Sequence record: PZ379549.1
Origin: a phage
Length of the DNA stretch: 46,532 bases
Direction: 5' to 3' (one strand)
In this document: piece by piece, positions 9-36,596 of the stretch
Position numbering within the stretch: position 1 is the first letter of the stretch
How the letters are laid out: each line of letters opens with the position of its first letter
Program-made: the position numbers and the translations under genes
The notes under the pieces: generated by a model
What the model was told of the DNA's origin: nothing
What the model saw: the letters and a program-made list of their open reading frames with translations, nothing else
The model's database searches: none

Positions 9-99
9 TTTTCCTCCACTAGTAGCTAATAGCACCAAAAGTCAAAAACAATAAATCTCAGTATGTATAATACATTAACACTTCGACTTTGGGGGTAAA

Positions 100-1007: not shown

Positions 1008-1264
1008 TCATCGTTAAATGGTTCTTCTAAATCCCAATCAGAGCAGATTTCGTTAATCAATTCTTTGGTGCTGAAGTTCTCACGGTTAAGAATCTCCTGC
1101 AACTCAGATGATTTCTTGTGCTTAACTGTTAGCACTACTTCTGCATCATCGCCATTAGCTAACTGGAACTTAACTGGAAGTTTAAAGTCAGGCAGCGCCT
1201 TAAGTGAAAGTTTAAATTTTGCCATCTCGTTATCTCCTTTGTTTGTGTTTGTTGATTGTAGCAT
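911..1264 (-). CDS. tail assembly chaperone (lambda gpG-like)
   Basis: 117-aa acidic ORF directly downstream of major tail protein and upstream of tape measure, with overlapping -1 frame ORF. Confidence 0.55.
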   Translation of the reverse strand: MLQSTNTNKGDNEMAKFKLSLKALPDFKLPVKFQLANGDDAEVVLTVKHKKSSELQEILNRENFSTKELINEICSDWDLEEPFNDENVEEFANLFPAAVPSLMDSYMKALAGQRVKI

Positions 1265-1272
1265 AAAGTGCT

Positions 1273-1300
1273 ATCAATAAAAAACCCTCCGAAGAGGGTT
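1273..1300 (-). terminator. rho-independent terminator after major tail protein gene
   Basis: Minus-strand RNA AACCCUC-UUCG-GAGGGUU followed by UUUUAUUGAU. Confidence 0.7.
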
Positions 1301-4098: not shown

Positions 4099-4977
4099 TT
4101 ACCGGGTAGCGTGAAATGCAGGTCCTTCGGCTGAGCCAGGTAGCACGTTCGTCACTTCTGGAATCTCAATACTCAGGTTGAGCGGATCCTTTTCAAACGC
4201 CAGTGCAGCTTTGCCACCAGCACCGTCGTAGTTATCCAGGAATTGCAGATAACGCAGAGTGATGCCGGAGTTATTGGTTGCAAACAACTGCGCGTAGCTG
4301 ATAGAGGTGTTCGGCACCAGTTCTTGCATCAGGCGGCGAGCGGAAGCAGGCAGCAGGATATCAGTCGCGGTGTGAGCACCATTGGTAGCTGTTTCGATAG
4401 CATCGATAAGCGCTGTGATATCAGTCATAGCAGCAGCCGCGGAGTTCCACGTACCAGCAACAACCTGGTTAACGTTCGGACGCATTGAATACGCCAGGAA
4501 TGCCGTGCGGTGCAGAGCCAGACCATACCAGTTTATCGAGCAGGTTGTCATGCGCTTCAAAAGCCAATGCCTGTTTACGAGCTGACAGTGACTGACCAGT
4601 TGCTGCGCCAGCTTTGATTTCGTCGGTGGAAATCAGGAACGCGTTACCAAAACGGAAAACTTTGCCTTGCTTCTCGGTCATGAACGCATCAACCAGCGGC
4701 AAGGTCATCAGAGTAATCAGCGATAATCTGAGCAATTACCAACACCATCAAACTCTGGATATTCGAAATACTTCGCGTGAGCCAGGAATTTCATTAGTTA
4801 CCGGGAAGATATTAACAACTGAGTTTTCTGCGATATTCTTTTTCGTAAGCGCGATGTCAGAGCTAGCGGTCAAGCTGGCTTAACGGTCCAGATACCAGCA
4901 GCATCAGCTTTATCTACACCCATTTGCTCAAGGTGAGCGGTGATTTTTGCTTGTTCTGCATCAAATTTAATGGCCAT
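4099..4977 (-). pseudogene. major capsid protein gene, interrupted by at least 3 frame changes
   Basis: ATG at 4977 (MAIKFDAEQAKITAHLEQMGVDKADAAGIWTVKPA then stop); capsid-like segments continue in other frames (ORFs 4469-4735 and 4099-4560); position between decoration gene and neck block. Confidence 0.55.
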
Positions 4978-9171: not shown

Positions 9172-9246
9172 TTTTTACTCCTCTCGTTTGCGTGAAGTAA
9201 CTATAAGCCATCCTTGGCGGCACGTCTTTAGCAAAACGTGCTATTT
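9172..9246 (-). promoter_or_regulatory. box-hairpin-(-10)-leader unit upstream of moron
   Basis: Box at 9226-9246 overlapping TerL stop (TAG), hairpin GCCAAGGATGGC, TATAGT, CACGCAAACGAGAGGAG, ATG 9171. Confidence 0.4.
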
Positions 9247-11890: not shown

Positions 11891-11966
11891 TGGTGTTCCG
11901 CACTGGACTCGAACCAGTAACTAAGACTTAGGAGGTCTTTGCGTTATCCTGTTACGCCAGCAGAAC
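11891..11966 (-). tRNA. tRNA-Arg (anticodon CCU, reads AGG)
   Basis: Hand-folded 76-nt cloverleaf: acceptor GTTCTGC/GCGGAAC, D-arm GCGT-AACAGGATA-ACGC, anticodon arm AAGAC-CTCCTAA-GTCTT (U33, CCT, A37), variable AGTT, T-arm ACTGG-TTCGAGT-CCAGT, discriminator A, encoded CCA. Confidence 0.8.
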
Positions 11967-12912: not shown

Positions 12913-12990
12913 ATCTCTATCTCTCTTCGTTGTTTGATGGGTTAATTATATGGCATCCATGCCTGTCATGTTTAGCAATTCGTGCTATCC
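12913..12990 (-). promoter_or_regulatory. box-hairpin-(-10)-leader unit
   Basis: Box 12971-12990, hairpin GGCATGGATGCC, ATATAATT, CCCATCAAACAACGAAGAGAGA, ATG 12912. Confidence 0.4.
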
Positions 12991-14258: not shown

Positions 14259-14335
14259 ATCTATACTCCATCTCGTTGTCGATGTGGTAATTATGCCGGA
14301 TTTCTCCGGCAATTGTTTAGCAATTCATGCTATTC
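14259..14335 (-). promoter_or_regulatory. box-hairpin-(-10)-leader unit
   Basis: Box 14315-14335, hairpin GCCGGAGAAATCCGGC, ATAATTAC, CACATCGACAACGAGATGGAG. Confidence 0.4.
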
Positions 14336-14712: not shown

Positions 14713-14942
14713 TTCGTTTGTTCCAGGTAAGTTTTCATCTTGTTCAGTGAGTCTATTGCGTCATCAAGGTCAGTAATTACGTCCTTGTGGCCTCGCAAAC
14801 CCATGCATAGAAGCTTTTTAATTGCATGCTGACACGCCGGGTCTGTAACGTTGAACGCTGATAGCGTGCGATACACATCAACAATAGCACGCTCGCCATT
14901 AAGCCCGATAATCTCTCTTTCATATTTGCTCCTTTCCATCAC
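14709..14942 (-). CDS. hypothetical protein
   Basis: 77-aa ORF downstream of box unit. Confidence 0.4.
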   Translation of the reverse strand: MMERSKYEREIIGLNGERAIVDVYRTLSAFNVTDPACQHAIKKLLCMGLRGHKDVITDLDDAIDSLNKMKTYLEQTK

Positions 14943-15017
14943 ATCCTCTTTTGCTTTGCTTCAATAAGGCCACTATATCAAATGGCCTTGCGGAAGGTTT
15001 AGCAATTCGTGCTATTC
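14943..15017 (-). promoter_or_regulatory. box-hairpin-(-10)-leader unit
   Basis: Box 14998-15017 abutting stop of 15016-15201, hairpin AAGGCCA..TGGCCTT, TATAGT. Confidence 0.4.
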
Positions 15018-15445: not shown

Positions 15446-15530
15446 TTTCGTTTTCCTTTGTGCCTCTCGTTTCGATGAGATAATTATGCCATCCATGGCA
15501 TTATATGCGTTAGGCAAAAAGTGCTATTTC
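15446..15530 (-). promoter_or_regulatory. box-hairpin-(-10)-leader unit
   Basis: Variant box 15510-15530, hairpin GCCATGGATGGC, ATAATTAT, CTCATCGAAACGAG. Confidence 0.4.
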
Positions 15531-16156: not shown

Positions 16157-16277
16157 ATTCGTTACTCCTGATTGGTTGCTCTTCGTTAAGATGAAACCAT
16201 GGTATCATGAATATACGCGTTATCAAGTGTTATGTTGTGTTTATATCTGCATTGGTTACGCTTTTTGACCTCTCAGC

Positions 16278-16291
16278 CCAGCTATAGCTGG
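16278..16291. promoter_or_regulatory. perfect 14-bp palindrome CCAGCTATAGCTGG
   Basis: Read directly; core AGCTATAGCT recurs at 35217-35226. Confidence 0.4.
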
Positions 16292-16407
16292 TGTAATTAC
16301 CCTGTGTAAGATTTTACGCGGATTCGCCGGGGGTATGCATATGTATCTATATAGATAAAATTAGTAGTTTTCATAGAAAAACTATCGACCCATCCATACG
16401 ACCAATC

Positions 16408-16495
16408 TACACCATATACATACATATATATAATAATAATAATAATATAGTAAAAGGTTGATATATATAGATATTATTATGTAACCATTGCGTAA
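16408..16495. repeat. AT-rich control module copy A, includes (TAA)5 microsatellite at 16431-16447
   Basis: About 85 percent identical to 35357-35439 by eye. Confidence 0.6.
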
Positions 16496-16642
16496 TCTAG
16501 CGTGGTAGGCGTGTATGATTCTTCGGAAGCGCACCTCATATACACACCATAACTTCGATAACGTGTATATCCAAATTGGCTCAGCAAGAATCAAAATCAA
16601 CTTGTATGGTAGTCCATCCACCATTCATTCACCCCACATCGA

Positions 16643-16743
16643 TCATTGCAAATTCTGCAACAATCAAAAACATCATTGCATTCGATGCAATATTGCTATA
16701 TGTGCAATAATGATGATGAATCATTGCAATAGCTGCAACAATC
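16643..16743. promoter_or_regulatory. operator/iteron-like array of TTGCAA-family sites
   Basis: 23-bp direct repeats TCATTGCAA-N4-TGCAACAATC at 16643-16665 and 16721-16743 flanking inverted repeat ATTGCAT-tcg-ATGCAAT at 16675-16691. Confidence 0.4.
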
Positions 16744-16755
16744 TATAAATCCAAC

Positions 16756-16830
16756 GAATAGCACTTTTTGCTAATGCACAATCATTAGTAAGTTGCTACT
16801 ATGTATTCATCGAAACGGTGCTGGACTCTG
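16756..16830 (+). promoter_or_regulatory. box-(-10)-leader unit at head of rightward small-ORF cluster
   Basis: Variant box 16756-16776, then TATGTATT, CATCGAAACGG. Confidence 0.35.
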
Positions 16831-17005
16831 AGTCACTTCCGAAAGGAACCAAAAAGAGTGAACGACACCGCGCAATGTGAGGAAGCGTTACCTTACCCAC
16901 CAAAGCGCCTTGCGGGTCCTTTTGATAGGATGCCGGGCCGGGTTTAAAATCCCGAGTTGTAGTGAGTACGTTGAAGAGATTTCGATAACAAGAAAACATA
17001 GAGAG

Positions 17006-17176
17006 ATGACAGTGATGACAGAAAAAACAGTTGGTTACAGTTACAGTAATGGTCATTGGGTTGTTGAGTTAAAAGGGTTTCACAAGTACCCAAAATTAAG
17101 TTTCTTCATGACAGAAGATGATGCAAAGTCTTGGGTTCAGGTTCTTAAAGAAAGGTGGTTTAAAAATGAAACTTAA
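17006..17176 (+). CDS. hypothetical protein
   Basis: ORF 16877-17176 trimmed to internal ATG. Confidence 0.3.
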   Translation: MTVMTEKTVGYSYSNGHWVVELKGFHKYPKLSFFMTEDDAKSWVQVLKERWFKNET

Positions 17177-17555: not shown

Positions 17556-17759
17556 ATGAAACTTCTTTGCACTAACATAATTAAAGACTTTAACGACGCC
17601 TTCAATAAGGGCTCTGAATACAACGCTACCGAGTTTAAAGATGATATGTGCCTTGTTACCGGCGAACGTCCACACAAGCATCACGACACGTTCCAGGCGC
17701 TTAAATGCCTTGATTACGTAATCATCCACGGCATCGCAACTTTTAAGGTGATTGAATAA
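17556..17759 (+). CDS. hypothetical protein
   Basis: 67-aa ORF. Confidence 0.4.
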   Translation: MKLLCTNIIKDFNDAFNKGSEYNATEFKDDMCLVTGERPHKHHDTFQALKCLDYVIIHGIATFKVIE

Positions 17760-17923
17760 TGCTTTTACCATCTGATATAAACTATTTCGATCTGGAAATA
17801 ATTAGTGCTTACAGCGGAAAGGGTTGGCCTTGCGGGGACTGGTTTAACGAGGACCTGCTTGAGTCTCACGAGATTATGTTGAAGGCAATTGAGAAGGCCA
17901 GAAAAAATAGCACTAATTGCTAA
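17759..17923 (+). CDS. hypothetical small protein ending ...KNSTNC
   Basis: 54-aa ORF translated by hand; C-terminus and stop encoded by box. Confidence 0.3.
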   Translation: MLLPSDINYFDLEIISAYSGKGWPCGDWFNEDLLESHEIMLKAIEKARKNSTNC

Positions 17924-17982
17924 AACTCACCGCCACGGATGGCGTATATTTACTCCATCGAAACGAAAGAGAGCAAGAGATC
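17906..17982 (+). promoter_or_regulatory. box-hairpin-(-10)-leader unit
   Basis: Box 17906-17924, hairpin CGCCACGGATGGCG 17931-17944, TATATT 17945-17950, TACTCCATCGAAACGAAAGAGAG. Confidence 0.45.
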
Positions 17983-18102
17983 ATGTTCGACAACTTTTAT
18001 GACGAGATGGAAGAGGCGGTTTTCATGGCGTCGCTAGATGGTAAGATTTACGGTTTAGTTCAGAAGTTTGATAAGATTGTTGTGCGTATTGTGCGCAAAT
18101 AA
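17983..18102 (+). CDS. hypothetical small protein
   Basis: ORF 17917-18102 trimmed to ATG 17983 after conserved leader. Confidence 0.3.
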   Translation: MFDNFYDEMEEAVFMASLDGKIYGLVQKFDKIVVRIVRK

Positions 18103-18533: not shown

Positions 18534-18700
18534 AATTATACATTGTAAGTGGTTGCACACACTATGATGGAAGCGAAGTGATTGCCGCTTTCGATGAAGA
18601 ATTCAAAGCACAGGAGTTTAAATATAACAAAGAAATATCTTCAGAAAATCACTTTGACTACTACAAGATAGATTGCATCTTACTAAATAGCACTAATTGA
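18530..18700 (+). CDS. hypothetical small protein ending ...LNSTN
   Basis: 56-aa ORF translated by hand; ATGA overlap with upstream stop. Confidence 0.3.
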   Translation: MKLYIVSGCTHYDGSEVIAAFDEEFKAQEFKYNKEISSENHFDYYKIDCILLNSTN

Positions 18701-18760
18701 TAATGCATTATAAGCGGCTATTGATATAATGGCCGCTCAGAAACAATGCGGAGAGAAGTA
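18686..18760 (+). promoter_or_regulatory. box-hairpin-(-10) unit
   Basis: Variant box 18686-18703, hairpin GCGGC..GCCGC enclosing TATAAT. Confidence 0.4.
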
Positions 18761-20023
18761 ATGTTTGATTTCAATGAAGATAAACTATCTGTTGAGCAAG
18801 TTATGGCGATCGCTGCCAATGACAACCTACCACCGCTTCGCGTGGCTATTAATGCCAATGGCTATCGACAGTCTCAATCGTTCTGGAAAGCACCTGTCGA
18901 GATTGATACAGGTAATGATAAGTATCCAGTAATCTCACTCGGTAATGATATTGATGTTGTTGGTAAGCTATCGGCTAATATCGCTCGCTCGGTTCAGTTC
19001 CCTGAGTCGTCAGCTTACATGCACTTTCTTGGTTGTGTTTCTGCTGCAATGCTTGGGCGTTTTACTGTCGAGTATCATGGAACCCAACAGCCAACATCTT
19101 TGTACGTGGTAACAAGTCAGCCGCCTTCAACTGGTAAATCAGCCATTAACTCGCTATCAATTGCGCCGATGATTGCTGAGACTGAGCGGTTGAATGAAGT
19201 ACGTAAACGTGATCGAAAAAAGATTATGGCTAAACTGTCCGCTCTGGCTAAAGAGATGAAGCAGGAGAAATCACCTTCTGAAATGGCTTCACTTTTTGAG
19301 GAGAAGGAGGATTTAGAGGAGAAGCTCGAGAAGCTATGCGATATAGTATTCCCTGTCTCCGATACTACTCCGGAAGGTCTTGCGCGAATCAACAATCGCC
19401 AGGGTAATTTTGCGGTAATCTCTGATGAGGCTACTAGCGTCAACTCACTGTTAGGCATGACTTACGGTGATGGCTCGAAGAAAACGAACAGCGAGCTCGT
19501 GCTGAAAGCATGGGATGCAGGTAATGTGTCAATTGCCCGTGCGAACGCAGAAAATAACATGAGCTTTGTGGCTATGGGATGCATCTCCGTAATTGCTCAG
19601 GATGAAACAATCAATGCCATTATGAATGCTGGTGCGCGTGGTATTGGTGTATCTGAGCGTTTCCTTCTGGTGCGTGAAAAATCATTTCTTGGCGACCGTG
19701 TATTTGTTGATGAAAATGGTGATTCAACCTATGAGGCTATTGATGGCGGCCTGAAAGCAGACTATTTCCGTCTTGTTCATGAGATTATGAATGAAGTTGA
19801 AGTGAAACTTACTGTAAGCGCGTCATCAATGCGTTACCTTAACCGCGCTCGTCAAGAGATGGAGCCTCATCTTGGTGATGGTGGCAAGTATTCTCACACA
19901 ATGTTGCGCGGTGCTCTTGGTAAGTTTGATAAGCAAGCAATCCGCATCGCTTCTGTTCTGCACGTAATTCGTAACTGGTTCTCACCAGCCGGATCCAGCC
20001 CTCAAGAAGTCAAGAGAGATTGA
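18761..20023 (+). CDS. P-loop NTPase, DUF3987-like (replication-associated?)
   Basis: Walker A-like SQPPSTGKS and Walker B-like FAVISDEATS; ATG 18761 with GGAGAGAAG RBS (track start 18746). Confidence 0.45.
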   Translation: MFDFNEDKLSVEQVMAIAANDNLPPLRVAINANGYRQSQSFWKAPVEIDTGNDKYPVISLGNDIDVVGKLSANIARSVQFPESSAYMHFLGCVSAAMLGRFTVEYHGTQQPTSLYVVTSQPPSTGKSAINSLSIAPMIAETERLNEVRKRDRKKIMAKLSALAKEMKQEKSPSEMASLFEEKEDLEEKLEKLCDIVFPVSDTTPEGLARINNRQGNFAVISDEATSVNSLLGMTYGDGSKKTNSELVLKAWDAGNVSIARANAENNMSFVAMGCISVIAQDETINAIMNAGARGIGVSERFLLVREKSFLGDRVFVDENGDSTYEAIDGGLKADYFRLVHEIMNEVEVKLTVSASSMRYLNRARQEMEPHLGDGGKYSHTMLRGALGKFDKQAIRIASVLHVIRNWFSPAGSSPQEVKRD

Positions 20024-20033
20024 ACTGGATACA

Positions 20034-20246
20034 ATGCAGGAAGCGGTTATGATTTTCAACGAACTAAGCAAGACTTATTTATCATCCGCTAGTGCTGCTG
20101 GTCATGCTGGTGACAATGCCGAGATGAACAAGCTGGTTGATATCCTGATTAAGCAGGGCAAGAATGGTAAAGGTGTTGTTGGTGTTCGCTCGTTGTATGA
20201 GGCTGCACGCAAGGTTAAACCTTTTGAAGCTCAGGCTGGAATGTAA
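20034..20246 (+). CDS. hypothetical protein
   Basis: 70-aa ORF. Confidence 0.4.
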   Translation: MQEAVMIFNELSKTYLSSASAAGHAGDNAEMNKLVDILIKQGKNGKGVVGVRSLYEAARKVKPFEAQAGM

Positions 20247-22083: not shown

Positions 22084-22160
22084 TTTTGAATCCTCTGTTG
22101 TTTTCGATGTAGTAATTATGCCGGATTACTCCGGCGATTGTTTAGCAATTCGTGCTATTT
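22084..22160 (-). promoter_or_regulatory. box-hairpin-(-10)-leader unit
   Basis: Box 22140-22160 (encodes kinase C-terminus NSTNC), hairpin GCCGGAttacTCCGGC 22120-22135, ATAATTAC, CATCGAAAACAACAGAGGA. Confidence 0.45.
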
Positions 22161-23171: not shown

Positions 23172-23250
23172 TACAACTCCTCATCTCGTTATCGTTTATT
23201 CATTTTGCCTCAATCCTTTGAGGCTTTATTAACAAAAAATGCTATTACTT
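23172..23250 (-). promoter_or_regulatory. box-hairpin-leader unit (variant box)
   Basis: AATAGCATTTTTTG box 23231-23250, 7-bp-stem hairpin GCCTCAA-tcct-TTGAGGC 23207-23224, leader TAAACGATAACGAGATGAGGAG. Confidence 0.35.
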
Positions 23251-24378
23251 AAACATTTCAGGTCGGCAAGTGAATCGACCAACTTCACCGTACTCTGAGC
23301 TATAGATAATTACTGAGGCCTGACGATAAGAGCGATACCCTCCGTTTGCGCTGTACGCATCTTTAGCACCCAACTGACCGTGTGACTCATCAATTCCAAG
23401 ATTACCCTCAGTAACCGTCTGATGATGATAATGGCCACTATGTGTATAAACGTATTCAGCATTACCAAATGCTTTGCGATGGTCGCGCGCAAGAGTTGAA
23501 AGACGAGTGTCAGGCTTTCGCAATTCATGACCATGGCAGTAACCCAACAATGTTTTACCAAACTCCGTCACGTGAAGAGCGGCTGGTGAGGCATCAACAT
23601 TTACACGAGGCTCATCCATGTAGAAGGCAGCCATTGCAGCTCGAAGCCAAATCATCCCAGAAAGGTCGTGGTTGCCTGGTATAATCTGAACCTCAACCTC
23701 TTTATGCTTGTCAAGCATCTTACTGACGGCGCGGCGAGTTGCACGAACAGCTACGTAGACAAGTTTATGATAACGGCTATCTTGATCAAGTACGTGCTTG
23801 CTGGTTGGAGTTACAGCTTCCATTCCATCCGAGTGAAGGAAGTCTCCACCAATCAGTAATACGGCTTTTGATGAATTCGGGGCCTTAGCAACTGCATAAT
23901 CAAAGTATTGGTTAAGCACTCGCTCTGCAATTTCTGTACTGTAGTTCTCCCCACACTCTGCATGGTGAGCCATTGCGCCAATATGCATATCAAACACGGG
24001 GTAGAGGCTCAAGGTGTCCTCATAGCTTGATTCACTGAGTGGTTTCGGAGTCTCTCGAGGGAGCTCATCTGTAAGCGCCTGAACAATCTGCTGAAGCATC
24101 TCTTCTTGTTTCTGTTCGTCGATGGAAGTTTTAACCCAGCGAAGCTTCTCATTACCATCCGCATCAATCATTGTTGAAGTGCCTTTAACAAGATAGCCAT
24201 CAGGAACTAGCTTCTTGATGCCTTCATTACCATGCCCAACCCCACTCTTAGCCAACTTGCTACGACGAAGCTCAACGTTTCGAATGTTCATTCCGTACTT
24301 CTCTGCAATCGCCTTGTTAGTCAGGCCGTTTTTCAGTTCTTCGATCAACTGCTCGGTGGTAATTTTTGCTGCTGCCAT
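23245..24378 (-). CDS. calcineurin-like metallophosphoesterase with N-terminal HTH
   Basis: HTH-like LTNKAIAEKYGMNIRNVELRRSKL; phosphoesterase motifs DMHIG, GGDFLH, GNHD, GHE, GHYHH. Confidence 0.55.
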   Translation of the reverse strand: MAAAKITTEQLIEELKNGLTNKAIAEKYGMNIRNVELRRSKLAKSGVGHGNEGIKKLVPDGYLVKGTSTMIDADGNEKLRWVKTSIDEQKQEEMLQQIVQALTDELPRETPKPLSESSYEDTLSLYPVFDMHIGAMAHHAECGENYSTEIAERVLNQYFDYAVAKAPNSSKAVLLIGGDFLHSDGMEAVTPTSKHVLDQDSRYHKLVYVAVRATRRAVSKMLDKHKEVEVQIIPGNHDLSGMIWLRAAMAAFYMDEPRVNVDASPAALHVTEFGKTLLGYCHGHELRKPDTRLSTLARDHRKAFGNAEYVYTHSGHYHHQTVTEGNLGIDESHGQLGAKDAYSANGGYRSYRQASVIIYSSEYGEVGRFTCRPEMFK

Positions 24379-24463: not shown

Positions 24464-24712
24464 TCAACCTCTTTCAACCAAAAGTCCAACAAAGTCAGCA
24501 CAAATTGCTAATTTCTTGTCCAGGTCAGTCATGCACAGGTTTCCACATGATGGTGAATAATAAATCTGTACCCACTTGCCATCTTTAGTCTTCGCATTAA
24601 CATCTACGTAGTCAGGAGGAAACCAGTCAGAAATAGGGATTGCTCTAAACTTATTCCCACTACTACCATGTACTAAGTCATAATGCCCAGGCTGAAAATC
24701 TAATCCCAACAT
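24464..24712 (-). CDS. hypothetical protein
   Basis: 82-aa ORF. Confidence 0.35.
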   Translation of the reverse strand: MLGLDFQPGHYDLVHGSSGNKFRAIPISDWFPPDYVDVNAKTKDGKWVQIYYSPSCGNLCMTDLDKKLAICADFVGLLVERG

Positions 24713-25505: not shown

Positions 25506-25590
25506 TTTCTTTCTCTCTTTGTGTGTTTCGTTTCGATGAGTTGATAATACACCAACTCACCAATTCGTCTTTAGCAATTCGTGCTATTTT
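25506..25590 (-). promoter_or_regulatory. box-(-10)-leader unit
   Basis: Box 25570-25590 overlapping upstream stop TAG, TATTAT, CTCATCGAAACGAAACACAC. Confidence 0.4.
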
Positions 25591-26008: not shown

Positions 26009-26263
26009 TCAATCCTCCATCGTAAATGATTTGTTGGCGATAATATCTTGCGACTTCTGATTCTTGCGGTGCGTAATCCTTAGCGGCGCACGGAAAAGAT
26101 GTGCATTTGTCATAATCATTTTAGCATTACGCAATCTGCCAATCCTAAAAGCCTCAGTCCTGTTCTCGATGTGAGTTGAGCAAAACGCCTTCCATTTGAC
26201 AGAACAAACACGATGGTCTGACTCCGGGAAGAATGTTTCATAAGCTCGGAATCTTGTCACCAC
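26009..26263 (-). CDS. hypothetical ORF (possible frame-shifted helicase tail or separate small gene)
   Basis: 84-aa ORF overlapping helicase 3' end. Confidence 0.25.
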   Translation of the reverse strand: MVTRFRAYETFFPESDHRVCSVKWKAFCSTHIENRTEAFRIGRLRNAKMIMTNAHLFRAPLRITHRKNQKSQDIIANKSFTMED

Positions 26264-28006
26264 TGTGAGCCATTACCTCATATGAAGCAACGATCCCTGA
26301 CTGGTTCTTTGTTAACCCAATCTTGAAGTCATAAACTCGCAACCAGTCCCCCTTACGATACATTTTTCCTGATAACTTAGCATTCGGGTCTATGAGCATC
26401 TCACCACAGCATCTGCAATTCTTAGCTGCAATATCATTCTTCTCACCGCATCCTTTCTTAATGATAGCTTTGGTCTGTGGGTCCGCTATATCTTCACACA
26501 GTCTAAACTGAAAGAAGTGCTCACAGCGCTTCCAGTCAATTACGTTATTGCAGCGCCTGGCTAATTGAGAGTTCACATAAGAGCATGCCGGACAGATTCT
26601 TGGCTTATCACCACGCTTTCTTGCTGACCTAAATTTCTGGTCTTGTACCTCTTCTATAATTGGGTCGAAGTAAAGTTCAGCCATATCATCAAGCGTTCCA
26701 GCAAAATCAAGAACAACATGGTCATCTTTTACCATTCCAGCTTCTTTGTGCTTCTTCTTAAGGATACGCATACCACGACCAAGCAACTGAATGAGTAGAG
26801 TAATGCTACCAACCTTCCTCAGGATAATGCTTGTATCCCACGGGGGGCAGTTTACGCCAGTTGTGAGGCAACCAATCTGAAATATGAACTTATATTCTCC
26901 GTTGGCTGCCTTCTCAAGTATCTCTCTACGCTTCTTCTCACCAGTGGAGTTGGTAACTATCGCCCAAGTAACACCTTCTAGGAAGTGCGGCTGCCGCCTC
27001 CATCGCAATGCTGTTTGCCAGCGCAAGTTACCAATGCAGCATTCCTTGTTTCCATAAACTTAGCAGCAAATCCCATTATCTTTTGTGTCATCGTTTGGTT
27101 TTCGTGAATCTTTGCAGCCATCGCATCCATTTCTTTCTTGCTGAAGTCCTTAACCCCATCACTTCCATCAGGAGTGAACTCACTAAGGTCGTAGCCCAAA
27201 TCACCAACTTCACCGTAGACAGTAGGAACAACGAACCCCAAGTCAACAAGGTAGCTGGTTGGCACTTGCATTACAGTTTTGCGCCAGAATCCACGGACAT
27301 TTGGGTTACTAACTACAATGTGGTCGTTGTTACGGTACGGGCTGCCAGTCAAACCGAAGATGCGTAGTTCGCGACCATACTTCTCTTTGCAGCGTCTCTT
27401 CATCTCAGTAATGATTAGCGTGTACTGCGCACGACCAGTTCCGAGCAATCCGGTATTCACTCCATCCTTGAAAACCATCTCACCCTTCTTCGTGCTCATC
27501 TGCTCGAATGTTTCCTCGTTCTCTTCAGCTTCTACGATATCCATATGGTCAACCATATGACATTCATCTATCGCAATAACGGCAGGAACATAGTCACCAA
27601 GGCCCTTAAACAAGCCGTTAGCAGCCGTGCCCTCACTAGCCACTATGGTTGGGTAGTAAACTGATTTAACGTTAAGGCCAGCGCAATAGACGCTATTACG
27701 GATGCCGAAGTTACGAAGCTCTTCAGCGTTCTGGCTGATAATTTCTGACTGGCGAGAAAGCACCATGTAAGGAAGCCCAAGCTGTTCCATGCGCTTTCCA
27801 ATCATGGCAAGAATAATTGTCTTACCAGCAGATACAGACAGGTCTGCGATGAATGGGGCCTCGTACTTTCCAATAGCCTTCCCAATTGCATCAAATGTCA
27901 CACACTGGAATGGGTAAGGAGTGATTTCTCCAAACTGGTAATCTCTCTGAATCTGCTTAATCTTCTCTTGATCGAAGTTGGCTACTAAGCGCTCTACTGG
28001 AAGCAT
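26238..28006 (-). CDS. SF2 DEAH-box helicase with C-terminal Cys-rich region, one frame change near 26978-27026
   Basis: N-part ORF 26978-28006 has Walker A SAGKT and DECH; C-part ORF 26238-27026 has motif VI QLLGRGMR; the two overlap in different frames. Confidence 0.65.
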
Positions 28007-28090
28007 TTTAAATATCCCGACATTTTGTTAGTTCGTTGCATTGCTGTATAATAACAACTATCGACCCTATTGTTTAACAAAAAATGCTAT
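28007..28090 (-). promoter_or_regulatory. box-(-10)-leader unit upstream of helicase
   Basis: Variant box 28073-28090, TATTAT, CAGCAATGCAACGAACTAAC. Confidence 0.35.
28024..28051 (+). promoter_or_regulatory. sigma70-like promoter for HTH gene
   Basis: TTGTTA (28024-28029), 16-nt spacer, TATAAT (28046-28051). Confidence 0.35.
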
Positions 28091-28102
28091 TGAGGTAATG
28101 AG

Positions 28103-28492
28103 ATGTGTGAAATTGACAAGCGAACTATCAACGGCAATAACGGAACCATCCGCACGCAAGACAAGAAACAGCGCAAACGACCGTCAGGCTACTACGTATT
28201 GAAAGATGAAGTAAAGGCTGGGCTAAGAGCTCGTCTGGAGATGGTTCTTGACTTCTACGGCACGAAGGCCAATATCGCCAAGCAGTTAAATGTATCTCAC
28301 CAGACTGTAGAACAATGGTTTGATCGCGGTATGATTTCGGCTCGAGGCGCCCAGCGAGCACATAATGCGTACAAGAGAAATAAGGGAGGGTTCCGAGCTA
28401 CTTTCTGCCGACCAGACCTGCAATTTGACGGTAACGGTAAGCCTCTGACGCTTACGATGCAAGAAGCGCCACATGCTACGCGTGGTTACTGA
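28103..28492 (+). CDS. HTH DNA-binding protein (candidate regulator)
   Basis: HTH-like GTKANIAKQLNVSHQTVEQWF; first gene of rightward unit; a +1 frame continues 36 codons past the stop. Confidence 0.45.
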   Translation: MCEIDKRTINGNNGTIRTQDKKQRKRPSGYYVLKDEVKAGLRARLEMVLDFYGTKANIAKQLNVSHQTVEQWFDRGMISARGAQRAHNAYKRNKGGFRATFCRPDLQFDGNGKPLTLTMQEAPHATRGY

Positions 28493-28585
28493 GGCTGAAC
28501 TAGCAACTAAAGCCACCTTGTCGACTCGTGGCGCAAGAATAAGATTGCCAACGAAGCCGCACGAAAAGCTAAAGAGTAAATAATT

Positions 28586-28630: not shown

Positions 28631-29110
28631 ATGAACTGGCATGATTATTTTTACTATGTAGATGGCAAATTGCATTGGAAGATTAGCACTGCAAGACGTG
28701 TTAAGGTTGGCGATGAGTGCAACTCACTATCTACATCTGGCTATTACAAAGTGTCTGTTAATGGCTTTAGGACTTATGTACATAGAGTTGTGTGGGAGAT
28801 GTTTAATGGAGAACTTCAAAATGGCGACTACATTGATCATATAAACCATAACAAATTAGATAACAGAATAGAAAACCTAAGAGTAACAACAAATCAAGGT
28901 AACTCAAGAAATTGCAAGCTTAGCGTTTTATCAACAACTGGTTATTGTGGAGTGGCAAAGCTAAATCACGGAAAATTTAAGGCTCACATCAAGGTTGACG
29001 GCAAGCAGCTACACCTTGGGAACTTCGATACTCCAGAGCGGGCGTATAAAGTAAGAATTGAAGCAGAGGGAAAATACAACTTTCACGAAAATCACGGGTT
29101 AAGCAAATGA
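28631..29110 (+). CDS. HNH homing endonuclease with AP2-like domain (paralog of 100-585)
   Basis: Same architecture: DHINHNKLDNRIENLRVTTNQGN then GVAKLNHGKFKAHIKVDGKQLHLGNF. Confidence 0.7.
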   Translation: MNWHDYFYYVDGKLHWKISTARRVKVGDECNSLSTSGYYKVSVNGFRTYVHRVVWEMFNGELQNGDYIDHINHNKLDNRIENLRVTTNQGNSRNCKLSVLSTTGYCGVAKLNHGKFKAHIKVDGKQLHLGNFDTPERAYKVRIEAEGKYNFHENHGLSK

Positions 29111-30030
29111 ATTACGATAAGAATGAAGTTATACCTAAGATGGCCGGATTGTGGAAATCATTTTATGCAAAGGAACTTGGTTGGAATGATAGACACCTAA
29201 GTAAGAAGCACGGACCATGCCCATACTGCTTTGGCACTGACAGATTCAGATTTACCGACGAAATAGGCAGTGAAAAAGGAAATGGCGCGGCAGTTTGTTC
29301 GAAATGCGGAAGTGACTCCGGTATAGGATGGGTCATGAAGTGCACTGGATTGTCCTTCGCTGATTCAGTAAATTTGCTTGGTGACTGGCTGAACTTAATA
29401 CCAATTGAGGTTATAGTTAAAGCAAACAAGCAAGCATCAAGAACGCAGCGTTATAAAATTTGCGCTCAAGTAGACCACAAGAAAGTTCTTGAGGTCATGG
29501 AGAGGACTCAGCGAGTTGAATCTAGTCCACTCACGACATACGAGGGTATTTATGACGAGTTTGGTTTTGATGTTGGTATAGCTAAAAATTGTTCAATGAT
29601 TCACGCAATCCCTTGTTCGATGGTTTATGAAGATGGGCTTAGTGATGAGTTCTGTAACGTAATGTTTATTGATGAGGATTCAAATGTTAAGTTCCTTGCT
29701 GGTGATTACACTCGTGATTCTGTTTCCGTTATTGGTTCTAAGCTGGATGATAGTTATACTTATGTTGTTGACAATTATATTGATGGCATACGTGTTCACC
29801 TTGCTACTGGTGGGCGCGAAGTGTTTGTTGCTTTCTCCTGTTACAATATGGAGATGGTTATCCACCGCGACAAGTCAAGGAAGTTCAGAATTGCTTGCCG
29901 TGATTCTGATAGCGATATACTCGCTGTTGCTGACGATAGGGGTGTTGATGTTGTAGTTCCTAATGACGGTGAGTCATTTAAAACAGGCATACGAAAGAAA
30001 GTGTACAAAGCAAACGACTTGCTAAACTAA
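29107..30030 (+). CDS. DNA primase (zinc-finger plus TOPRIM-like)
   Basis: CPYCFG...CSKCGSDSG zinc-binding motif, acidic TOPRIM-like C-terminal half. Confidence 0.65.
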   Translation: MNYDKNEVIPKMAGLWKSFYAKELGWNDRHLSKKHGPCPYCFGTDRFRFTDEIGSEKGNGAAVCSKCGSDSGIGWVMKCTGLSFADSVNLLGDWLNLIPIEVIVKANKQASRTQRYKICAQVDHKKVLEVMERTQRVESSPLTTYEGIYDEFGFDVGIAKNCSMIHAIPCSMVYEDGLSDEFCNVMFIDEDSNVKFLAGDYTRDSVSVIGSKLDDSYTYVVDNYIDGIRVHLATGGREVFVAFSCYNMEMVIHRDKSRKFRIACRDSDSDILAVADDRGVDVVVPNDGESFKTGIRKKVYKANDLLN

Positions 30031-30051
30031 CCTCCTTCGGGAGGTTTTTTA
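30030..30051 (+). terminator. rho-independent terminator after primase
   Basis: ACCTCC-ttcg-GGAGGT followed by TTTTTT. Confidence 0.8.
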
Positions 30052-30115
30052 TTGCCTGAAAGATGGTAGAATGAATTTTGGCAATTAGTGCTACTTTACA
30101 AATGGAGACTTTACA

Positions 30116-32647
30116 ATGGCAATTTATGACTTAGGAACAGCATCACTAGCCTCAAATGGCGAGGTTACTGGCGTAGGTACTACATGGAAAGCACCTCTTA
30201 CACTGATTCGTGTAGGTGCTACTATCATTTTCAAAACCAGCCCTCTGAAAATTTACACCATCTCTGAAATCATCAGCGATACTCAGGTTAATGTTTATAA
30301 TCCAAGTTCTGAAACTGTTCCCGCTGGTACTGGTTACGCAATTCTTGCTCATGATGGAATTACTGTTCAGGGGTTGGCGCAGGATGTTGCGGAAACATTG
30401 CGTTACTACCAGTCAAAAGAGACTTCTATTGAAAGTCTACTGCAATTTATCGGGCAAGATACTTTCGATTGGCCTCGCTTCGAGCAGCTTGCAACCCAAT
30501 CAACCACTGGGGCTGCTGAGGCGCTAGCTAGTCAGATCGCTGCCGCTGAAAGTGCGAGTGCAGCCGCCTCAGCAAGAGACGCTACGACAGAGGCACGCGA
30601 TGCTACTATTAGCGCAATTAATAATGCTGGTGACGCCGGAACATTAGCAACGCTTGCATCTTACAATATAGCAAACTCAGTAGCAATTAGAGCTACCTCA
30701 TTTGATTGGCAAACTTACGCATTTAAAAACGGCTCAAAAGTTTTAGTGTCAAAGTCAGCAATGGTAAACACTCCTTCTAGTGTAAATGACCTTATATCAA
30801 GTGCCGGTGCTAGTCTTGATTATGTAATTGAGTGCAAGATTGTTACAGCAGGAACTGGAGAGTTGCTTTTATCATCAGCAACAACATCAAATGCAAACTA
30901 CTATAACTTATCTATTAGATACTCAGTGTCAAACTCAGTAAGAACGTTTTATACAAGGGAGATTTTATCAATTCCATCAGGAGGTATAAGTGGAGGAGCA
31001 AGCTCATCAAGGGTTAGGGATTTGATTGATGTTTATTCAAAATCCGAGACGTTTCAAAAATCATTGAATCTTTCAGACATTGCAGATAAGTCCGTGGCAA
31101 GAACCAACCTTGATGTTTACTCAAAGGGTGAGGTGTCATCAATTTTAAATACAGATTCAAAAAGCACATCAAGCTATAGCGGCTCAATATCTTCAGCAAT
31201 AAAAGCCGCTGGCGATGGCGGGTCGGTAGTTATAAGTCCGGGAACTTATGAGAGTAATAACTACTCCTTTGCTGGCAGGAACATATCAGGCTCTGGATAT
31301 AATACCGTAATAAGTGTTAAACCTTTTGAAACCGGACTCACCTCAACGCTATCGGTTCCTCACTGGAGGCAAAAGCATTTATCGGATTTGCAGTTTACAG
31401 GTACTGCAATACAAGGTAATAACGGCTTTCAATTCCCGAATGACCCTTATGCTGGCAGGATTGTGATGGATAGGCTGTACTTCAGCGACATTGATGTTGG
31501 TATACGTAAAAACGCTGGCAACATTGGAAATACCTACAGAAACGTAAGTGTTAGAAATGCGAATTACGGGTATAGAGCAAAAGCTCATGACAAAATGCAT
31601 ATAGGAGCGGACACTTTATACGGATACCACTCAGATACAATCTCTCAATATTCAGTAATGCTAGATGCGACAAGCACAAGTAGCGCAACGAACCCTGGTG
31701 CTGGAGGAATTGGTGGGTGGTGGATTAGGGATTCAATAATGGAGGCCTCTGCTGGCGGCGGTATAAGGTTAAAGAATAAACCTGGAGATTGCCCAACATC
31801 ACCTTGCGGATTGTCTAACGTATGGTTTGAAGCGATAGCAACTGGTGGGGCAATTAACGTAGGTGAGGGAGCTGAACTCCCAAGGGTTTTGAAGCTCATC
31901 GATACGTCCGTTTTCTTTGCTGAGCATTCTTATATTAATAACATTGAGTTATCAAATTCAAACCTTGTAACTTATGGGTGCAGGTTTGATAACGCTGATG
32001 GGCACCAAAGTTTCTCTCTTGATTCGAACAGTATTATTTTTGCTAAGGATGCATACCTGAATGGATCTTCAACATCAAACGTTATAGTTGAGTCGCTGGT
32101 ATCACAGACAGCCAAGATAACTGGCACTTCAAACCTATCTGTTAGAGGATATGTTACTAAGGGTCGAGTTTTTAATCCCGATTCCGGAACTGTTTTAGTC
32201 AGGAGGCCTTTTGGTACTGGTGGGAACAACTTTGGTGGAACAGGGTCGGCAAGTGAAGGTTCTGATACAAGGGGTATACACTCGCAATCATCTGGATACT
32301 ACGAATTGGCTGGTGCGGCTCAGTACGAATTGATAAATGGTGGCTTTAATATAACTTCCGGCAAATGGTATGCTTGGGGTATTTCTGCAAACAGGATTCA
32401 AGGCGGTGCTGATGGTATTATAAACATTTTTGGTAGCGCATCATTAGGAACTGTATTCACAGAAGCTGGTAAGTGGGTTCATACATTTGGCGTTGGTAAG
32501 GCTTCGGTTTCTGGCGTTGCAAACCTTAACATTAACCTCAATGGATTAACTGGTATGGTATTAAGCCTTGCTGATTATTTTGTTGTAAAATTTGATAATC
32601 AAAGGGACGCCTTGATATTTGCAAACTCAAGAGTTTCTCTTGCATAA
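30116..32647 (+). CDS. tail fiber / tailspike with probable beta-helix (depolymerase-like) domain
   Basis: 843-aa ORF, Ser/Thr/Gly/Asn-rich; central region resembles right-handed beta-helix carbohydrate-active domains. Confidence 0.6.
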   Translation: MAIYDLGTASLASNGEVTGVGTTWKAPLTLIRVGATIIFKTSPLKIYTISEIISDTQVNVYNPSSETVPAGTGYAILAHDGITVQGLAQDVAETLRYYQSKETSIESLLQFIGQDTFDWPRFEQLATQSTTGAAEALASQIAAAESASAAASARDATTEARDATISAINNAGDAGTLATLASYNIANSVAIRATSFDWQTYAFKNGSKVLVSKSAMVNTPSSVNDLISSAGASLDYVIECKIVTAGTGELLLSSATTSNANYYNLSIRYSVSNSVRTFYTREILSIPSGGISGGASSSRVRDLIDVYSKSETFQKSLNLSDIADKSVARTNLDVYSKGEVSSILNTDSKSTSSYSGSISSAIKAAGDGGSVVISPGTYESNNYSFAGRNISGSGYNTVISVKPFETGLTSTLSVPHWRQKHLSDLQFTGTAIQGNNGFQFPNDPYAGRIVMDRLYFSDIDVGIRKNAGNIGNTYRNVSVRNANYGYRAKAHDKMHIGADTLYGYHSDTISQYSVMLDATSTSSATNPGAGGIGGWWIRDSIMEASAGGGIRLKNKPGDCPTSPCGLSNVWFEAIATGGAINVGEGAELPRVLKLIDTSVFFAEHSYINNIELSNSNLVTYGCRFDNADGHQSFSLDSNSIIFAKDAYLNGSSTSNVIVESLVSQTAKITGTSNLSVRGYVTKGRVFNPDSGTVLVRRPFGTGGNNFGGTGSASEGSDTRGIHSQSSGYYELAGAAQYELINGGFNITSGKWYAWGISANRIQGGADGIINIFGSASLGTVFTEAGKWVHTFGVGKASVSGVANLNINLNGLTGMVLSLADYFVVKFDNQRDALIFANSRVSLA

Positions 32648-33807: not shown

Positions 33808-33884
33808 TAACTATCTCTCTTTCGTTTAAGTGGGGCAATCATACCTCACCTTTTGATTTTGTCTTTAGCAATTAGTGCTATTTT
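33808..33884 (-). promoter_or_regulatory. box-(-10)-leader unit upstream of erf
   Basis: Box 33863-33884 containing exonuclease stop TAG, TATGAT, CACTTAAACGAAAGAGAGA. Confidence 0.4.
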
Positions 33885-34852: not shown

Positions 34853-35047
34853 TCAATCCTTAATTTTAACAATCTTAACTGTTTTCAAATCTTCCTCAGT
34901 GAAGTACCCGGTCAGCAACTCCTTGGCCTCTTCCTTTGTCTCGAATTGGTCGGCTTCAGATTTGTTGGTAGTGTATCCAGCTGGGCCACCAAAGTAGCAG
35001 TCTCCGAACAGTGGGTTGTTTTTCTCTTTGATAATGTAGTAGGTCAT
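34853..35047 (-). CDS. hypothetical protein
   Basis: 64-aa ORF. Confidence 0.4.
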   Translation of the reverse strand: MTYYIIKEKNNPLFGDCYFGGPAGYTTNKSEADQFETKEEAKELLTGYFTEEDLKTVKIVKIKD

Positions 35048-35515: not shown

Positions 35516-35591
35516 CATAGCACTAATTGCTAAAACTGATCCGCAAAACCGGGTATAGTTAGCAACACAAACAACGAGAGAGAATTTTAAA
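35516..35591 (+). promoter_or_regulatory. box-(-10)-leader unit upstream of methyltransferase
   Basis: Box 35516-35535, TATAGT, CACAAACAACGAGAGAG. Confidence 0.4.
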
Positions 35592-36282
35592 ATGGTTATC
35601 TGGTCTTTATTTGATGGTTCTGGTCTGGCGGTAAAGGATTGGGCTGAAGCTGGCCACACTTGCTACTGTTTCAACTTTGATGAGTCTGACCACGGCAGCT
35701 ACAGTGACTTAAATGCAAAGGTTGAGCATGAGAACATCACATACGTTAACGCATGGATAGATGCTGACTTCGATTTTGATGTGAAACCTGATTTTATAAT
35801 GGCGTTCCCTCCATGCACTGACTTAGCCGTGAGCGGATCAAGACACTTTGAACGCAAGTGTACTAGCTAACCCTAACTTCCAAATTGAAGCTGCGGAGAC
35901 GTGCAAGATTGCTTTTAATCTTGCTGAAAAATACGGAGTACCATACATGATCGAGAACCCAATCAGCGTACTGTCATCACTTTGGCGAAAACCTGATAAC
36001 ACCTTCCACCCATATGAATACGGAGGCTATTTGCCGGAAGATGATTTACACCCGTTTTTTAGCGACCTAATAAAGCCAAAAGACGCATATCCCAAGAAGA
36101 CATGCATTTGGTATGGCAATGGGTTTAAATGGCCAGAGGCAATTCCAGTGGACGTTAACGGTGGATTCTCTGACCAATACAAGAAGCTAGGCGGGAAGAG
36201 CAATAAGACAAAGGTAATTCGCAGCCTAACTCCTCGCGGTTTTGCAAAAGCCGTCTTCATTGCAAATAGCACCAATTGCTAA
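35592..36282 (+). CDS. C5-cytosine DNA methyltransferase-like, one frame change near 35848-35870
   Basis: Motif I LFDGSGLA, PC motif FPPCTDLAVSG, ENV-like MIENP; two overlapping ORFs in different frames. Confidence 0.5.
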
Positions 36283-36350
36283 AGACAAATCTCAAGGATG
36301 AGATATCATTACTCCATTGAAACGAAACACACCTTCTAAGGAATACGAAA
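36264..36350 (+). promoter_or_regulatory. box-hairpin-(-10)-leader unit upstream of cor-like gene
   Basis: Box 36264-36284 encoding MTase C-terminus NSTNC and stop, hairpin ATCTCAaggaTGAGAT, TATCAT, ACTCCATTGAAACGAAACACACC. Confidence 0.4.
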
Positions 36351-36596
36351 ATGACTAACTTAATCAAACTTTCAATCATCGCAGCAGCAGCAATCATGAT
36401 GGTGGGTTGTTCTTCTGCTCCGCGTCCTGACGGATGGTGTGCAACGCAAGCAAACGGCGTGTGCGTGGCTAAATGGGAAAATGGTGTGGTTGTACCGTCT
36501 GGTGAAGTTGATGTGCGATACGCTGGTATTGAGAGCAAGGCTGGCGGCGGTTACGGTGGCTCTGTTGCTGACCATGGGTCTAAGGAGTGGAAATAA
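36351..36596 (+). CDS. cor: Cor-like outer-membrane lipoprotein (superinfection exclusion)
   Basis: 81-aa ORF with lipoprotein signal and lipobox MMVGCSS; adjacent to tail fiber genes. Confidence 0.55.

Follow-up and report, generated by a model that had tools for sequence, protein, structure and literature searches.

The question raised by the phage sequence PZ379549.1 is what kind of signal has been copied so many times in front of its genes, and which protein would read it. Along the 46,532 nucleotides analysed (the whole stretch, hereafter the window), a short box recurs, followed by a -10 hexamer and a leader, and the original prediction, centred on the copy near position 17,906, took this box for a palindrome bound by a dimeric regulator, recognised in it no known host-factor site, and proposed a promoter class extending over the whole phage; each of the 17 coordinates that it listed does hold a copy. 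By megablast, the window belongs to the Drexlerviridae, subfamily Braunvirinae (T1-like virulent coliphages), with Escherichia phage ES as its closest relative (95% identity), and TR1, phiA2-1, CEB_EC3a and the BASEL Piccard phages at a greater distance. The answer proposed here to the first part of the question is that, judged by its letters, the box is the marbox of E. coli, and not an unknown palindrome made for a dimer.

[quoted passage not shown] The core of the box, GCACTAATTGCTAAA, is letter-identical to the “consensus marbox gcactaattgctaaa” printed in PMC5684230, and it is found three times in the window, at 17910-17924, at 33864-33878 on the minus strand, and at 35520-35534. The same 15-mer is present in the host at yneO, where it is a MarA site detected by chromatin immunoprecipitation sequencing (ChIP-seq) with the strongest in-vitro grade, “+++” (PMC5684230, Table 1), and it fits at 15 of 15 positions the degenerate definitions GCAHWWWWTGYYAAA (PMC6900184) and gcannwwntgnnaaa (PMC12052159). 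Measured against the degenerate consensus, the window contains five exact matches for 0.05 expected, and 18 with at most one mismatch for 1.7 expected. Martin et al. reportedly gave in 1999 a 19-mer marbox, AYNGCACNNWNNRYYAAAY, and the 19-mer in this form has 15 matches in the window for 0.9 expected. Furthermore, under a position weight matrix (PWM) built from 31 host MarA ChIP-seq sites, with no phage input, the boxes listed beforehand are the top 17 15-mers of all 46.5 kb, at 15-20.5 bits, while for the host sites themselves the leave-one-out median is 11.8 and the highest score 20.1 bits. In the copy belonging to the cassette at 9172-9244, a stretch of 14 nucleotides, CACGTTTTGCTAAA, is identical to the marbox of E. 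coli mar itself.

The host chromosome also offers a direct counterpart, since the flagged cassette, compared by BLAST, matches a site beside lsrK in 3637 of 5426 complete E. coli genomes, and the example that was inspected carries ATAGCACTAATTGCTAAAACTC, 22 nucleotides identical to phage positions 17907-17928, including flanks beyond the 15-mer core. At this host yneO/lsrK site a -10 of the class II kind, at 18 nucleotides, is absent from the inspected example. The opinion that no known host factor corresponds to the box can no longer be held, given that it equals both the printed consensus and the MarA site of yneO.

As for the palindrome, its appearance (GCA...TGC) is itself part of the host consensus. 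The window has 18 occurrences of the pattern TAGCA-N5-TGCTA when up to one mismatch is allowed, for 2.2 expected and a maximum of five in 100 shuffles, so that the claimed abundance is confirmed; the symmetry of the pattern is only partial. This can be seen in a pooled set of 236 cassettes, no two of them identical, taken from the window, from T1 and from T1-like IMG/VR contigs and gathered with the box pattern itself, which makes the conservation at positions of the pattern partly circular, and not so at the others. The symmetric pairs are limited to 2/16, 3/15, 5/13 and 6/12; position 14 is a pyrimidine and its mirror, G4, is invariant; and the strongly conserved A0, A1, C7, T11, A17 and A18 break the two-fold relation. 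The only variable positions are 8 (T/G), 9 and 10 (A/T only), 14 (C/T), 19 and 20, and these coincide exactly with the degenerate positions of the host consensus. The two-fold symmetry of a palindromic operator for a dimeric HTH regulator is therefore not what the box presents, and its asymmetric conserved positions argue against a symmetric dimer and fit a monomer with two different reading heads, as would be expected for MarA, SoxS or Rob (PMC6900184).

The arrangement in which the box is found is equally regular. It begins with the 20-bp box, ATAGCACnAATTGCTAAAnn, from which 17-19 nucleotides lead to a TATAAT-like -10; then come about 5 nucleotides, CA (the A being +1), a leader of about 25 nucleotides, a purine-rich ribosome-binding site and ATG. 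The start sites, here and throughout, are predicted from the sequence. The oriented alignment gives 15 complete cassettes in the window, with a start codon preceded by a Shine-Dalgarno sequence 73-85 nucleotides from the first base of the box, and every one of them points toward its downstream gene, as had been stated; the incomplete copies are a degenerate one at 29-48 and two of the box only, at 1255-1274 (-) and 30075-30094 (-), and there are weak look-alikes within open reading frames (ORFs) at 24495, 30677 and 40996. In the pooled set, a Shine-Dalgarno sequence and an ORF start lie 69-108 nucleotides downstream (median 76) in 192 of the 236 cassettes, against 15 in the opposite direction, and the gap between box and -10 is of 18 nucleotides in 183 (78%) and of 17-19 in 221 (94%). 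The box spans -50 to -31 and is centred about -40.5 relative to the predicted start, and it is the box bases AAAACn that fill the -35 slot; the central 20 kb shows no excess of -35 and -10 pairs of the sigma-70 type, with 39 of them where shuffles give 43. These features bear out the idea of a phage-wide promoter class without a -35 and with an activator-type site centred near -41. Anchored on the hexamer, the core promoter consists of G-14 (0.80), T-12 (0.85), A-11 (1.0), T-10, T-7 (1.0), C-1 (0.68) and A+1 (0.84), the predicted C-1/A+1 start lying about 7 nucleotides after the -10. The bases that follow +1 are a looser UCGAAAC, and of the conserved leader proposed earlier, what is general is the consensus CAyCrAAAC; the form CATCGAAACGA, exact or with one mismatch, is found in only five window cassettes, about a third.

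Such a geometry is that of the class II promoters of the mar/sox/rob regulon, in which the sites have forward orientation, overlap the -35, cluster near -41, and lack a recognisable -35 (PMC12052159, PMC8811837, PMC10268841). Relative to the predicted start, the phage cassettes agree with these promoters in orientation, in -35 overlap and spacing, and in having a canonical -10 with the -35 missing. The micF promoter of E. coli, read from MG1655, has the marbox ACAGCACTGAATGTCAAAAC at 334-353, a gap of 18 nucleotides, TAGAAT, and its annotated +1 at 385, and promoters of this type share with the phage the forward, asymmetric 20-bp marbox over an absent -35, the 18-nucleotide gap and the centre near -41. 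The phage differs in the density of these promoters, 15-25 in a virulent genome of about 46-50 kb compared with 11 assigned in a study of the Salmonella chromosome (PMC10268841), in boxes that are much nearer the consensus than typical host marboxes, and in the fusion of the boxes, unlike host class II sites, to the stop codon of the gene upstream, to a hairpin in the spacer and to a leader that is conserved.

This same geometry bears on two other explanations, from which UP elements and stoperators were put forward for phage TLS (PMC11447400). According to the first, the box would be an UP element, or some other element touched by the RNA polymerase alone through sigma or the C-terminal domain of the alpha subunit (alpha-CTD), without a transcription factor, which would suit its place at -50 to -31 and its A-rich flanks; however, UP elements are A/T tracts, and G4, C5, C7 and G13 are invariant here, the TTGCTA within the box lies 22 nucleotides from the -10, too far for a -35, and the sequence equals a verified MarA site, all of which leaves this explanation very improbable indeed. 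According to the second, the boxes would be mainly negative or structural, whether as roadblocks (“stoperators”), as decoys for MarA, SoxS and Rob, or as parts of terminators, with the -10s working unaided. Compatible with it are the boxes without a -10 (1255-1274 and 30075-30094 in the window, 8362 and 35995 in T1), the repressor-like position of the box 30075-30094 at the tail-fibre gene promoter, the terminator-like character of hairpin plus box on the opposite strand, and the activator-independent activity that G-14, at 0.80, could to some extent give. Nevertheless, the rigid phasing of 18 nucleotides, the forward orientation and the ORF at about 76 nucleotides are traits of promoters that neither roadblocks nor decoys would need, there is no -35 to back an unaided initiation, and the phage is virulent, without an identifiable repressor; we regard a mainly negative or structural role as decidedly unlikely. 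With respect to the tail-fibre region itself (30029-30116), the box 30075-30094 is located between the primase terminator and extended -10, on one side, and the tail-fibre start codon, on the other, a layout that is repeated in T1 at 34902; it covers approximately +1 to +20 of the extended -10 promoter, a location fit for repression.

Between the box and the start there is a further element. This region is more structured than composition-matched shuffles (minimum free energy, MFE, of -7.7 against -3.5 kcal/mol, mean z -2.15), and the short GC spacer hairpin noted from the outset is thus real as a tendency, with the reservation that two designs exist, a GC hairpin upstream of the -10 or arms that flank or overlap it (GGGGTT..TATAGT..AACCCC). 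In several cassettes of T1, Motto and RAD2, the GC hairpin is followed by TTTG..TAT(A/T)AT, and the records of T1 and Motto annotate the GC hairpins preceding the -10 as rho-independent terminators; the arms that flank or overlap the -10 cannot be classical terminators. A GC hairpin placed before the -10 would be read only in transcripts arriving from upstream, and together with the U-rich -10 region it would probably end or stabilise the upstream transcript.

The stop codons of the upstream co-directional genes are also involved, as among 220 cassettes (window, T1 and T1-like IMG/VR contigs) the stop is a TAG at box positions 2-4 in 79 (36%), a TAA falls at 15-17 in 24 and, in 6, at 8-10, and in 39 the stop abuts position 1. 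Since the upstream gene usually stops inside the box, the cassette can be considered a compact punctuation mark made of stop, terminator and promoter, and the TAG at 2-4 may account for an invariance of T2 and A3 beyond what the host consensus demands. The spacer hairpins often have the form CA-NGGA-TG (9212-9221, 12953-12962, 15489-15500, 17934-17943, 23209-23224, 36291-36303), and GGAT is found in 6 of 17 window spacers, for 1.3 expected, and in 40 of 198 IMG/VR cassettes, for 16.8 expected. These hairpins resemble the binding hairpins of CsrA; a mechanism of the CsrA type was discarded, as the predicted start comes only after the hairpin and most cassettes have no such hairpin.

The cassettes extend to the whole family. 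T1 (Tunavirinae) has about 25 copies, the TLS-like phage Motto has 18, the Klebsiella phage RAD2 (Webervirus) has 17, and the TLS-like Vc1 also carries them (10 PWM matches in 20 kb); the consensus of the box does not change across the subfamilies of Drexlerviridae, nor between Escherichia and Klebsiella hosts, so that the conservation in T1-like genomes on which the original prediction counted is found in T1, in TLS-like phages and in Webervirus. In an exact-pattern scan of IMG/VR, all the contigs with several copies belong to genomes of about 46-52 kb, a T1-like size. Motto and Vc1, labelled as phages of Pseudomonas and Vibrio, are TLS-like Drexlerviridae with the same cassettes, and these non-enterobacterial host labels look doubtful; Motto has a superinfection-exclusion gene at the position of Cor.

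The repeat as such is already published, and the marbox and the class II promoter types are well known. The re-annotation of TLS in 2024 described 18 intergenic copies of a “21-nt intergenic direct repeat”, aaATAGCACnnnTTGnTAAAA, with similar ones in T1, Rtp and Rogue1, oriented with transcription and about 76 nucleotides upstream of start codons, and left their function as an unanswered question for which stoperators, enhancer sites and UP elements were proposed (PMC11447400). It is the same element as the box, with which it shares consensus, orientation and the distance of about 76 nucleotides, and hence the bare observation is not new; that paper makes no mention of the marbox, of the fixed phasing of the -10 or of the overlap with stop codons, and in the open-access full-text literature no paper was found that links the T1-like repeat to the marbox or to Rob.

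Other phage systems offer partial likenesses. In the middle promoters of T4, as in the cassette, an activator box that includes TGCT takes the place of the -35 and goes together with a good -10. In T4 this is the MotA box, which has its centre at about -30, 11-13 bp from the -10, and T4 encodes its reader (sigma appropriation by AsiA/MotA); unlike it, the box considered here spans -50 to -31 and ends 18 nucleotides before the -10. A middle promoter of the MotA type was rejected for its wrong spacing and because no AsiA-like homologue was found in the ORFs of four T1-like genomes, MotA not being among the proteins searched for. The promoter-plus-stem-loop cassettes (PeSL) of T4-type phages are said to punctuate small gene modules with many near-identical copies, and reportedly are early promoters of the host sigma-70 with a -35, while the cassette here has instead a host-activator site upstream.

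If the box is a marbox, the second part of the question is whether the phage itself could supply a reader. No AraC- or MarA-like protein was found by tblastn of the window (best E 5.8), nor a homologue of MarA, SoxS or Rob by phmmer and profile search in the 1614 ORFs of the window, T1, Motto and RAD2, where the best E, 0.037, corresponds to a tape-measure protein; the queries recognise each other at 1e-28 to 1e-39. The HTH domain that had been attributed to the protein of 23245-24378 is not detectable; the protein has a weak Metallophos match alone, is a homologue of the T1 gp16 exonuclease, and was set aside as a candidate. The other candidate, encoded at 28103-28492, is a homologue of T1 gp23 (58% identity), of a family confined to T1-like phages and present in every T1-like genome checked; it has sub-threshold Pfam matches to HTH families of the Cro/CI type, its PHROG is annotated “transcriptional regulator”, and its AlphaFold model (predicted local distance difference test, pLDDT, of 87) has as best PDB matches all-alpha Cro, with a single HTH, at a target-relative template modelling (TM) score of about 0.7 and with weak E-values. 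In an alignment of 46 sequences of this family, the N-terminal IDKRTINGNNGT..KDKK and the C-terminal G(F/Y)RAxFCRPDLxFDxNGKP are nearly invariant, and the HTH with its recognition helix is the least conserved part (mean top-residue frequency of 0.50-0.57, against 0.79-0.82 elsewhere). This combination of a variable HTH and an invariant box is the opposite of what would be expected from the reader of the box; in other words, no phage regulator was found whose DNA-reading surface is conserved alongside it. The remaining conserved small ORFs gave no match to a DNA-binding family.

The gene of this gp23-like protein has its own promoter of the sigma-70 type, TTGTTA-16-TATAAT (+), within 28025-28103, and a marbox lies in its 5′ leader. 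As this promoter and the marbox promoter of the helicase share overlapping -10s (28047-28053), they should be mutually exclusive, and the divergent pair, with the same layout in T1 at 36431-36525, looks like a small genetic switch.

A reader encoded by the phage, either this Cro-type protein or a small early protein, with the likeness to the marbox arising through mimicry of or competition with the host regulators, is rather unlikely, although it is the chief alternative, and a phage-made activator would account for robust growth in unstressed cells. It would also find some backing in the presence of the gp23-like gene in all T1-like genomes checked, with its independent promoter, in its back-to-back, operator-like arrangement with a box promoter, conserved in T1, and in the several conserved small ORFs of no known function, in which novel folds are possible. 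Nevertheless, the box is asymmetric at six positions and a single HTH of the Cro type usually acts as a symmetric dimer, its HTH is the most variable part of the family across the same phages in which the box is constant, no AraC-like two-HTH protein is found in four T1-like genomes, and a reader of this kind would need to have coincided with about 22 bits of host consensus in addition to the orientation and the class II spacing. Moreover, most of the small-ORF clusters that look early are themselves behind boxes, and therefore the reader should already exist in the cell at infection.

The reader that would satisfy this requirement is the host. The cassettes are probably class II marbox promoters served by Rob, MarA or SoxS, and in Klebsiella also by RamA, the motifs of these four proteins being “nearly indistinguishable” (PMC10268841). 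A monomer of one of these two-HTH activators of the AraC family would bind the box on the phage DNA and would recruit the sigma-70 RNA polymerase through class II contacts with sigma region 4 and alpha-CTD, sigma being moved off the -35 region in the manner of the micF complexes, after which the downstream phage unit would be transcribed; in this way the phage probably relies on regulators of its host for turning on the majority of its non-structural genes. Rob would be the likeliest reader by default, as it is made constitutively, and in a host exposed to drugs or to oxidative stress expression would be increased by MarA and SoxS.

There are, on the other side, several considerations that weigh against this interpretation. 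Unstressed cells contain little MarA or SoxS, and most of the Rob present in standard growth is aggregated and inactive (PMC5684230, PMC10268841). T1-like phages nonetheless grow well on ordinary laboratory cultures. In addition, the classical genetics of T1 resistance yields fhuA and tonB, and is not known to yield rob, mar or sox, though redundancy among the three activators, or a partial dependence on them, could have hidden an effect. Searches of the open-access literature found no binding, start-site, transcriptome or genetic data for T1-like phages. The invariance of T2, A3, T11 and T12 exceeds what the host consensus needs, which could be the signal of a different reader, and there exist a conserved Cro-type phage protein encoded beside one box and many small ORFs with no annotated function. 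The scarcity of the activators might be circumvented in several ways: the idealised sites may be able to bind Rob at its basal level, some basal activity may come from G-14 and a good -10, or a host regulator may be activated or released by an early product of the phage.

A wider proposition, on which our judgement is evenly divided, is that T1-like phages would have handed almost their whole non-structural programme over to MarA, SoxS and Rob (RamA) of the host by means of 15-25 idealised class II marbox promoters per genome, in such a way that their development would be tuned by antibiotic, oxidative and bile-salt stress and the replicating phage DNA would act as a large sink for these regulators; with the same balance of doubt and belief, this programme would comprise the early small ORFs, replication, recombination, nucleotide metabolism, lysis and superinfection exclusion. 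T1 is a founding model phage, and the question addressed is how transcription is controlled in the absence of a polymerase or sigma factor of its own; the identity of the marbox turns what the TLS paper had left as an unanswered question into simple experiments. If the proposition is true, a family of gut and laboratory coliphages would be linked to the regulators of multidrug resistance, antibiotics, salicylate, bile salts or clinical mutations in mar, sox, rob or ramA could alter the susceptibility to T1-like and Webervirus therapy phages, infection could disturb the resistance regulon of the host by titrating its activators, and the cassettes would be compact, ready-made promoter parts strongly responsive to MarA, SoxS and Rob.

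Positions of the marbox cassettes and their parts in the window, and of the matching site in the host
Feature	Position (strand)	Details
Marbox of the flagged cassette	17907-17926 (+)	ATAGCACTAATTGCTAAAAC; core 17910-17924 = GCACTAATTGCTAAA; 20.5 bits under the host-only PWM, the highest of the window
Upstream ORF of the flagged cassette	17759-17923 (+)	stop TAA is box positions 15-17 (17921-17923)
Spacer hairpin CGCCA-CGGA-TGGCG	17931-17944 (+)	between box and -10; terminator-like on both strands
-10 TATATT	17945-17950 (+)	18 nt past the 20-bp marbox; equal to the micF gap
Predicted start and leader	17956-17982 (+)	C-1 17956, A+1 17957; leader CATCGAAACGAAAGAGAGCAAGAGATC; ATG at 17983
Degenerate cassette	29-99 (+)	box ATAGCACCAAAAGTCAAAAA; 17-nt gap; TATAAT 66-71; precedes HNH endonuclease ORF starting at 100
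Weak box-only copy, without -10	1255-1274 (-)	after a terminator; upstream of tape-measure chaperone homologue
Complete cassette	9172-9244 (-)	box ATAGCACGTTTTGCTAAAGA; -10 TATAGT 9200-9205; ATG 9171; upstream of virion structural protein and portal operon
Complete cassette	12913-12988 (-)	-10 TATAAT 12945-12950; ATG 12912
Complete cassette	14259-14333 (-)	hairpin GCCGGAgaaaTCCGGC; -10 CATAAT 14290-14295; ATG 14258
Complete cassette	14940-15015 (-)	arms AGGCCA/TGGCCT around -10 TATAGT 14972-14977; identical core in T1 at 3535
Complete cassette	15446-15527 (-)	box ATAGCACTTTTTGCCTAACG; -10 CATAAT 15483-15488; exact CATCGAAACGA leader; ATG 15445
Cassette	16758-16820 (+)	-10 TACTAT 16797-16802; leader CATCGAAACGG; then about 200 nt without obvious ORF
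Complete cassette	18687-18760 (+)	-10 TATAAT 18725-18730 between arms GCGGC/GCCGC; upstream of DUF3987-type helicase
Complete cassette	22084-22158 (-)	upstream of small ORF and holin/endolysin/spanin genes
Cassette, weak -10 (CAAAAT)	23172-23245 (-)	upstream of polynucleotide kinase/phosphatase gene
Complete cassette	25506-25587 (-)	exact CATCGAAACGA leader; arms GAGTTG/CAACTC around -10 TATTAT
Helicase cassette	28007-28090 (-)	-10 28048-28053 (-) overlaps -10 TATAAT 28047-28052 (+) of divergent gp23-like gene promoter
Isolated reverse-oriented marbox, without -10	30075-30094 (-)	3′ of TGgTAGAAT extended -10; 22 nt upstream of tail-fibre ATG 30116
Complete cassette	33808-33881 (-)	upstream of Erf/SSB recombination genes; core = consensus marbox
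Complete cassette	35517-35591 (+)	upstream of DNA methylase gene; core = consensus marbox
Complete cassette	36266-36350 (+)	upstream of Cor-type lipoprotein gene
Host site	1205-1226 of the inspected E. coli stretch	between ECSE_1600-family autotransporter gene (taken as yneO) and lsrK

Some other observations concern the rest of the window. Two genes of HNH_3-family endonucleases, probably homing endonucleases, occupy 100-585 and 28631-29110, one of them with a weak, sub-threshold match to the AP2 domain, and they sit directly behind a cassette or beside the gp23-like gene. The genes of the helicase, the major capsid protein, the tail completion protein and the DUF3987 helicase are split into 2-3 ORFs with respect to T1, Motto and RAD2, and the gp23-like gene runs on in another frame (HMLRVVTEAELATKPP... 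at 28470-28580), the coordinates of the split genes being 26009-28006, 4099-4735, 2360-2776, 18746-20246 and 28103-28580; that genes otherwise conserved should be divided in this manner suggests frameshift sequencing errors in the window.

A tRNA-Arg gene (anticodon CCU) is located at 11891-11966 (-), and it is the sole match of an Rfam scan of the window, which therefore gives none for 16200-17010. This latter region is non-coding, AT-rich and divergent, with runs of (ATA)n and TATATA and repeated CATTGCA/TGCAATG motifs at 16640-16740, and, together with the cassette at 16758 (+), it may be an origin, a pac site, an early-control region or a non-coding RNA.

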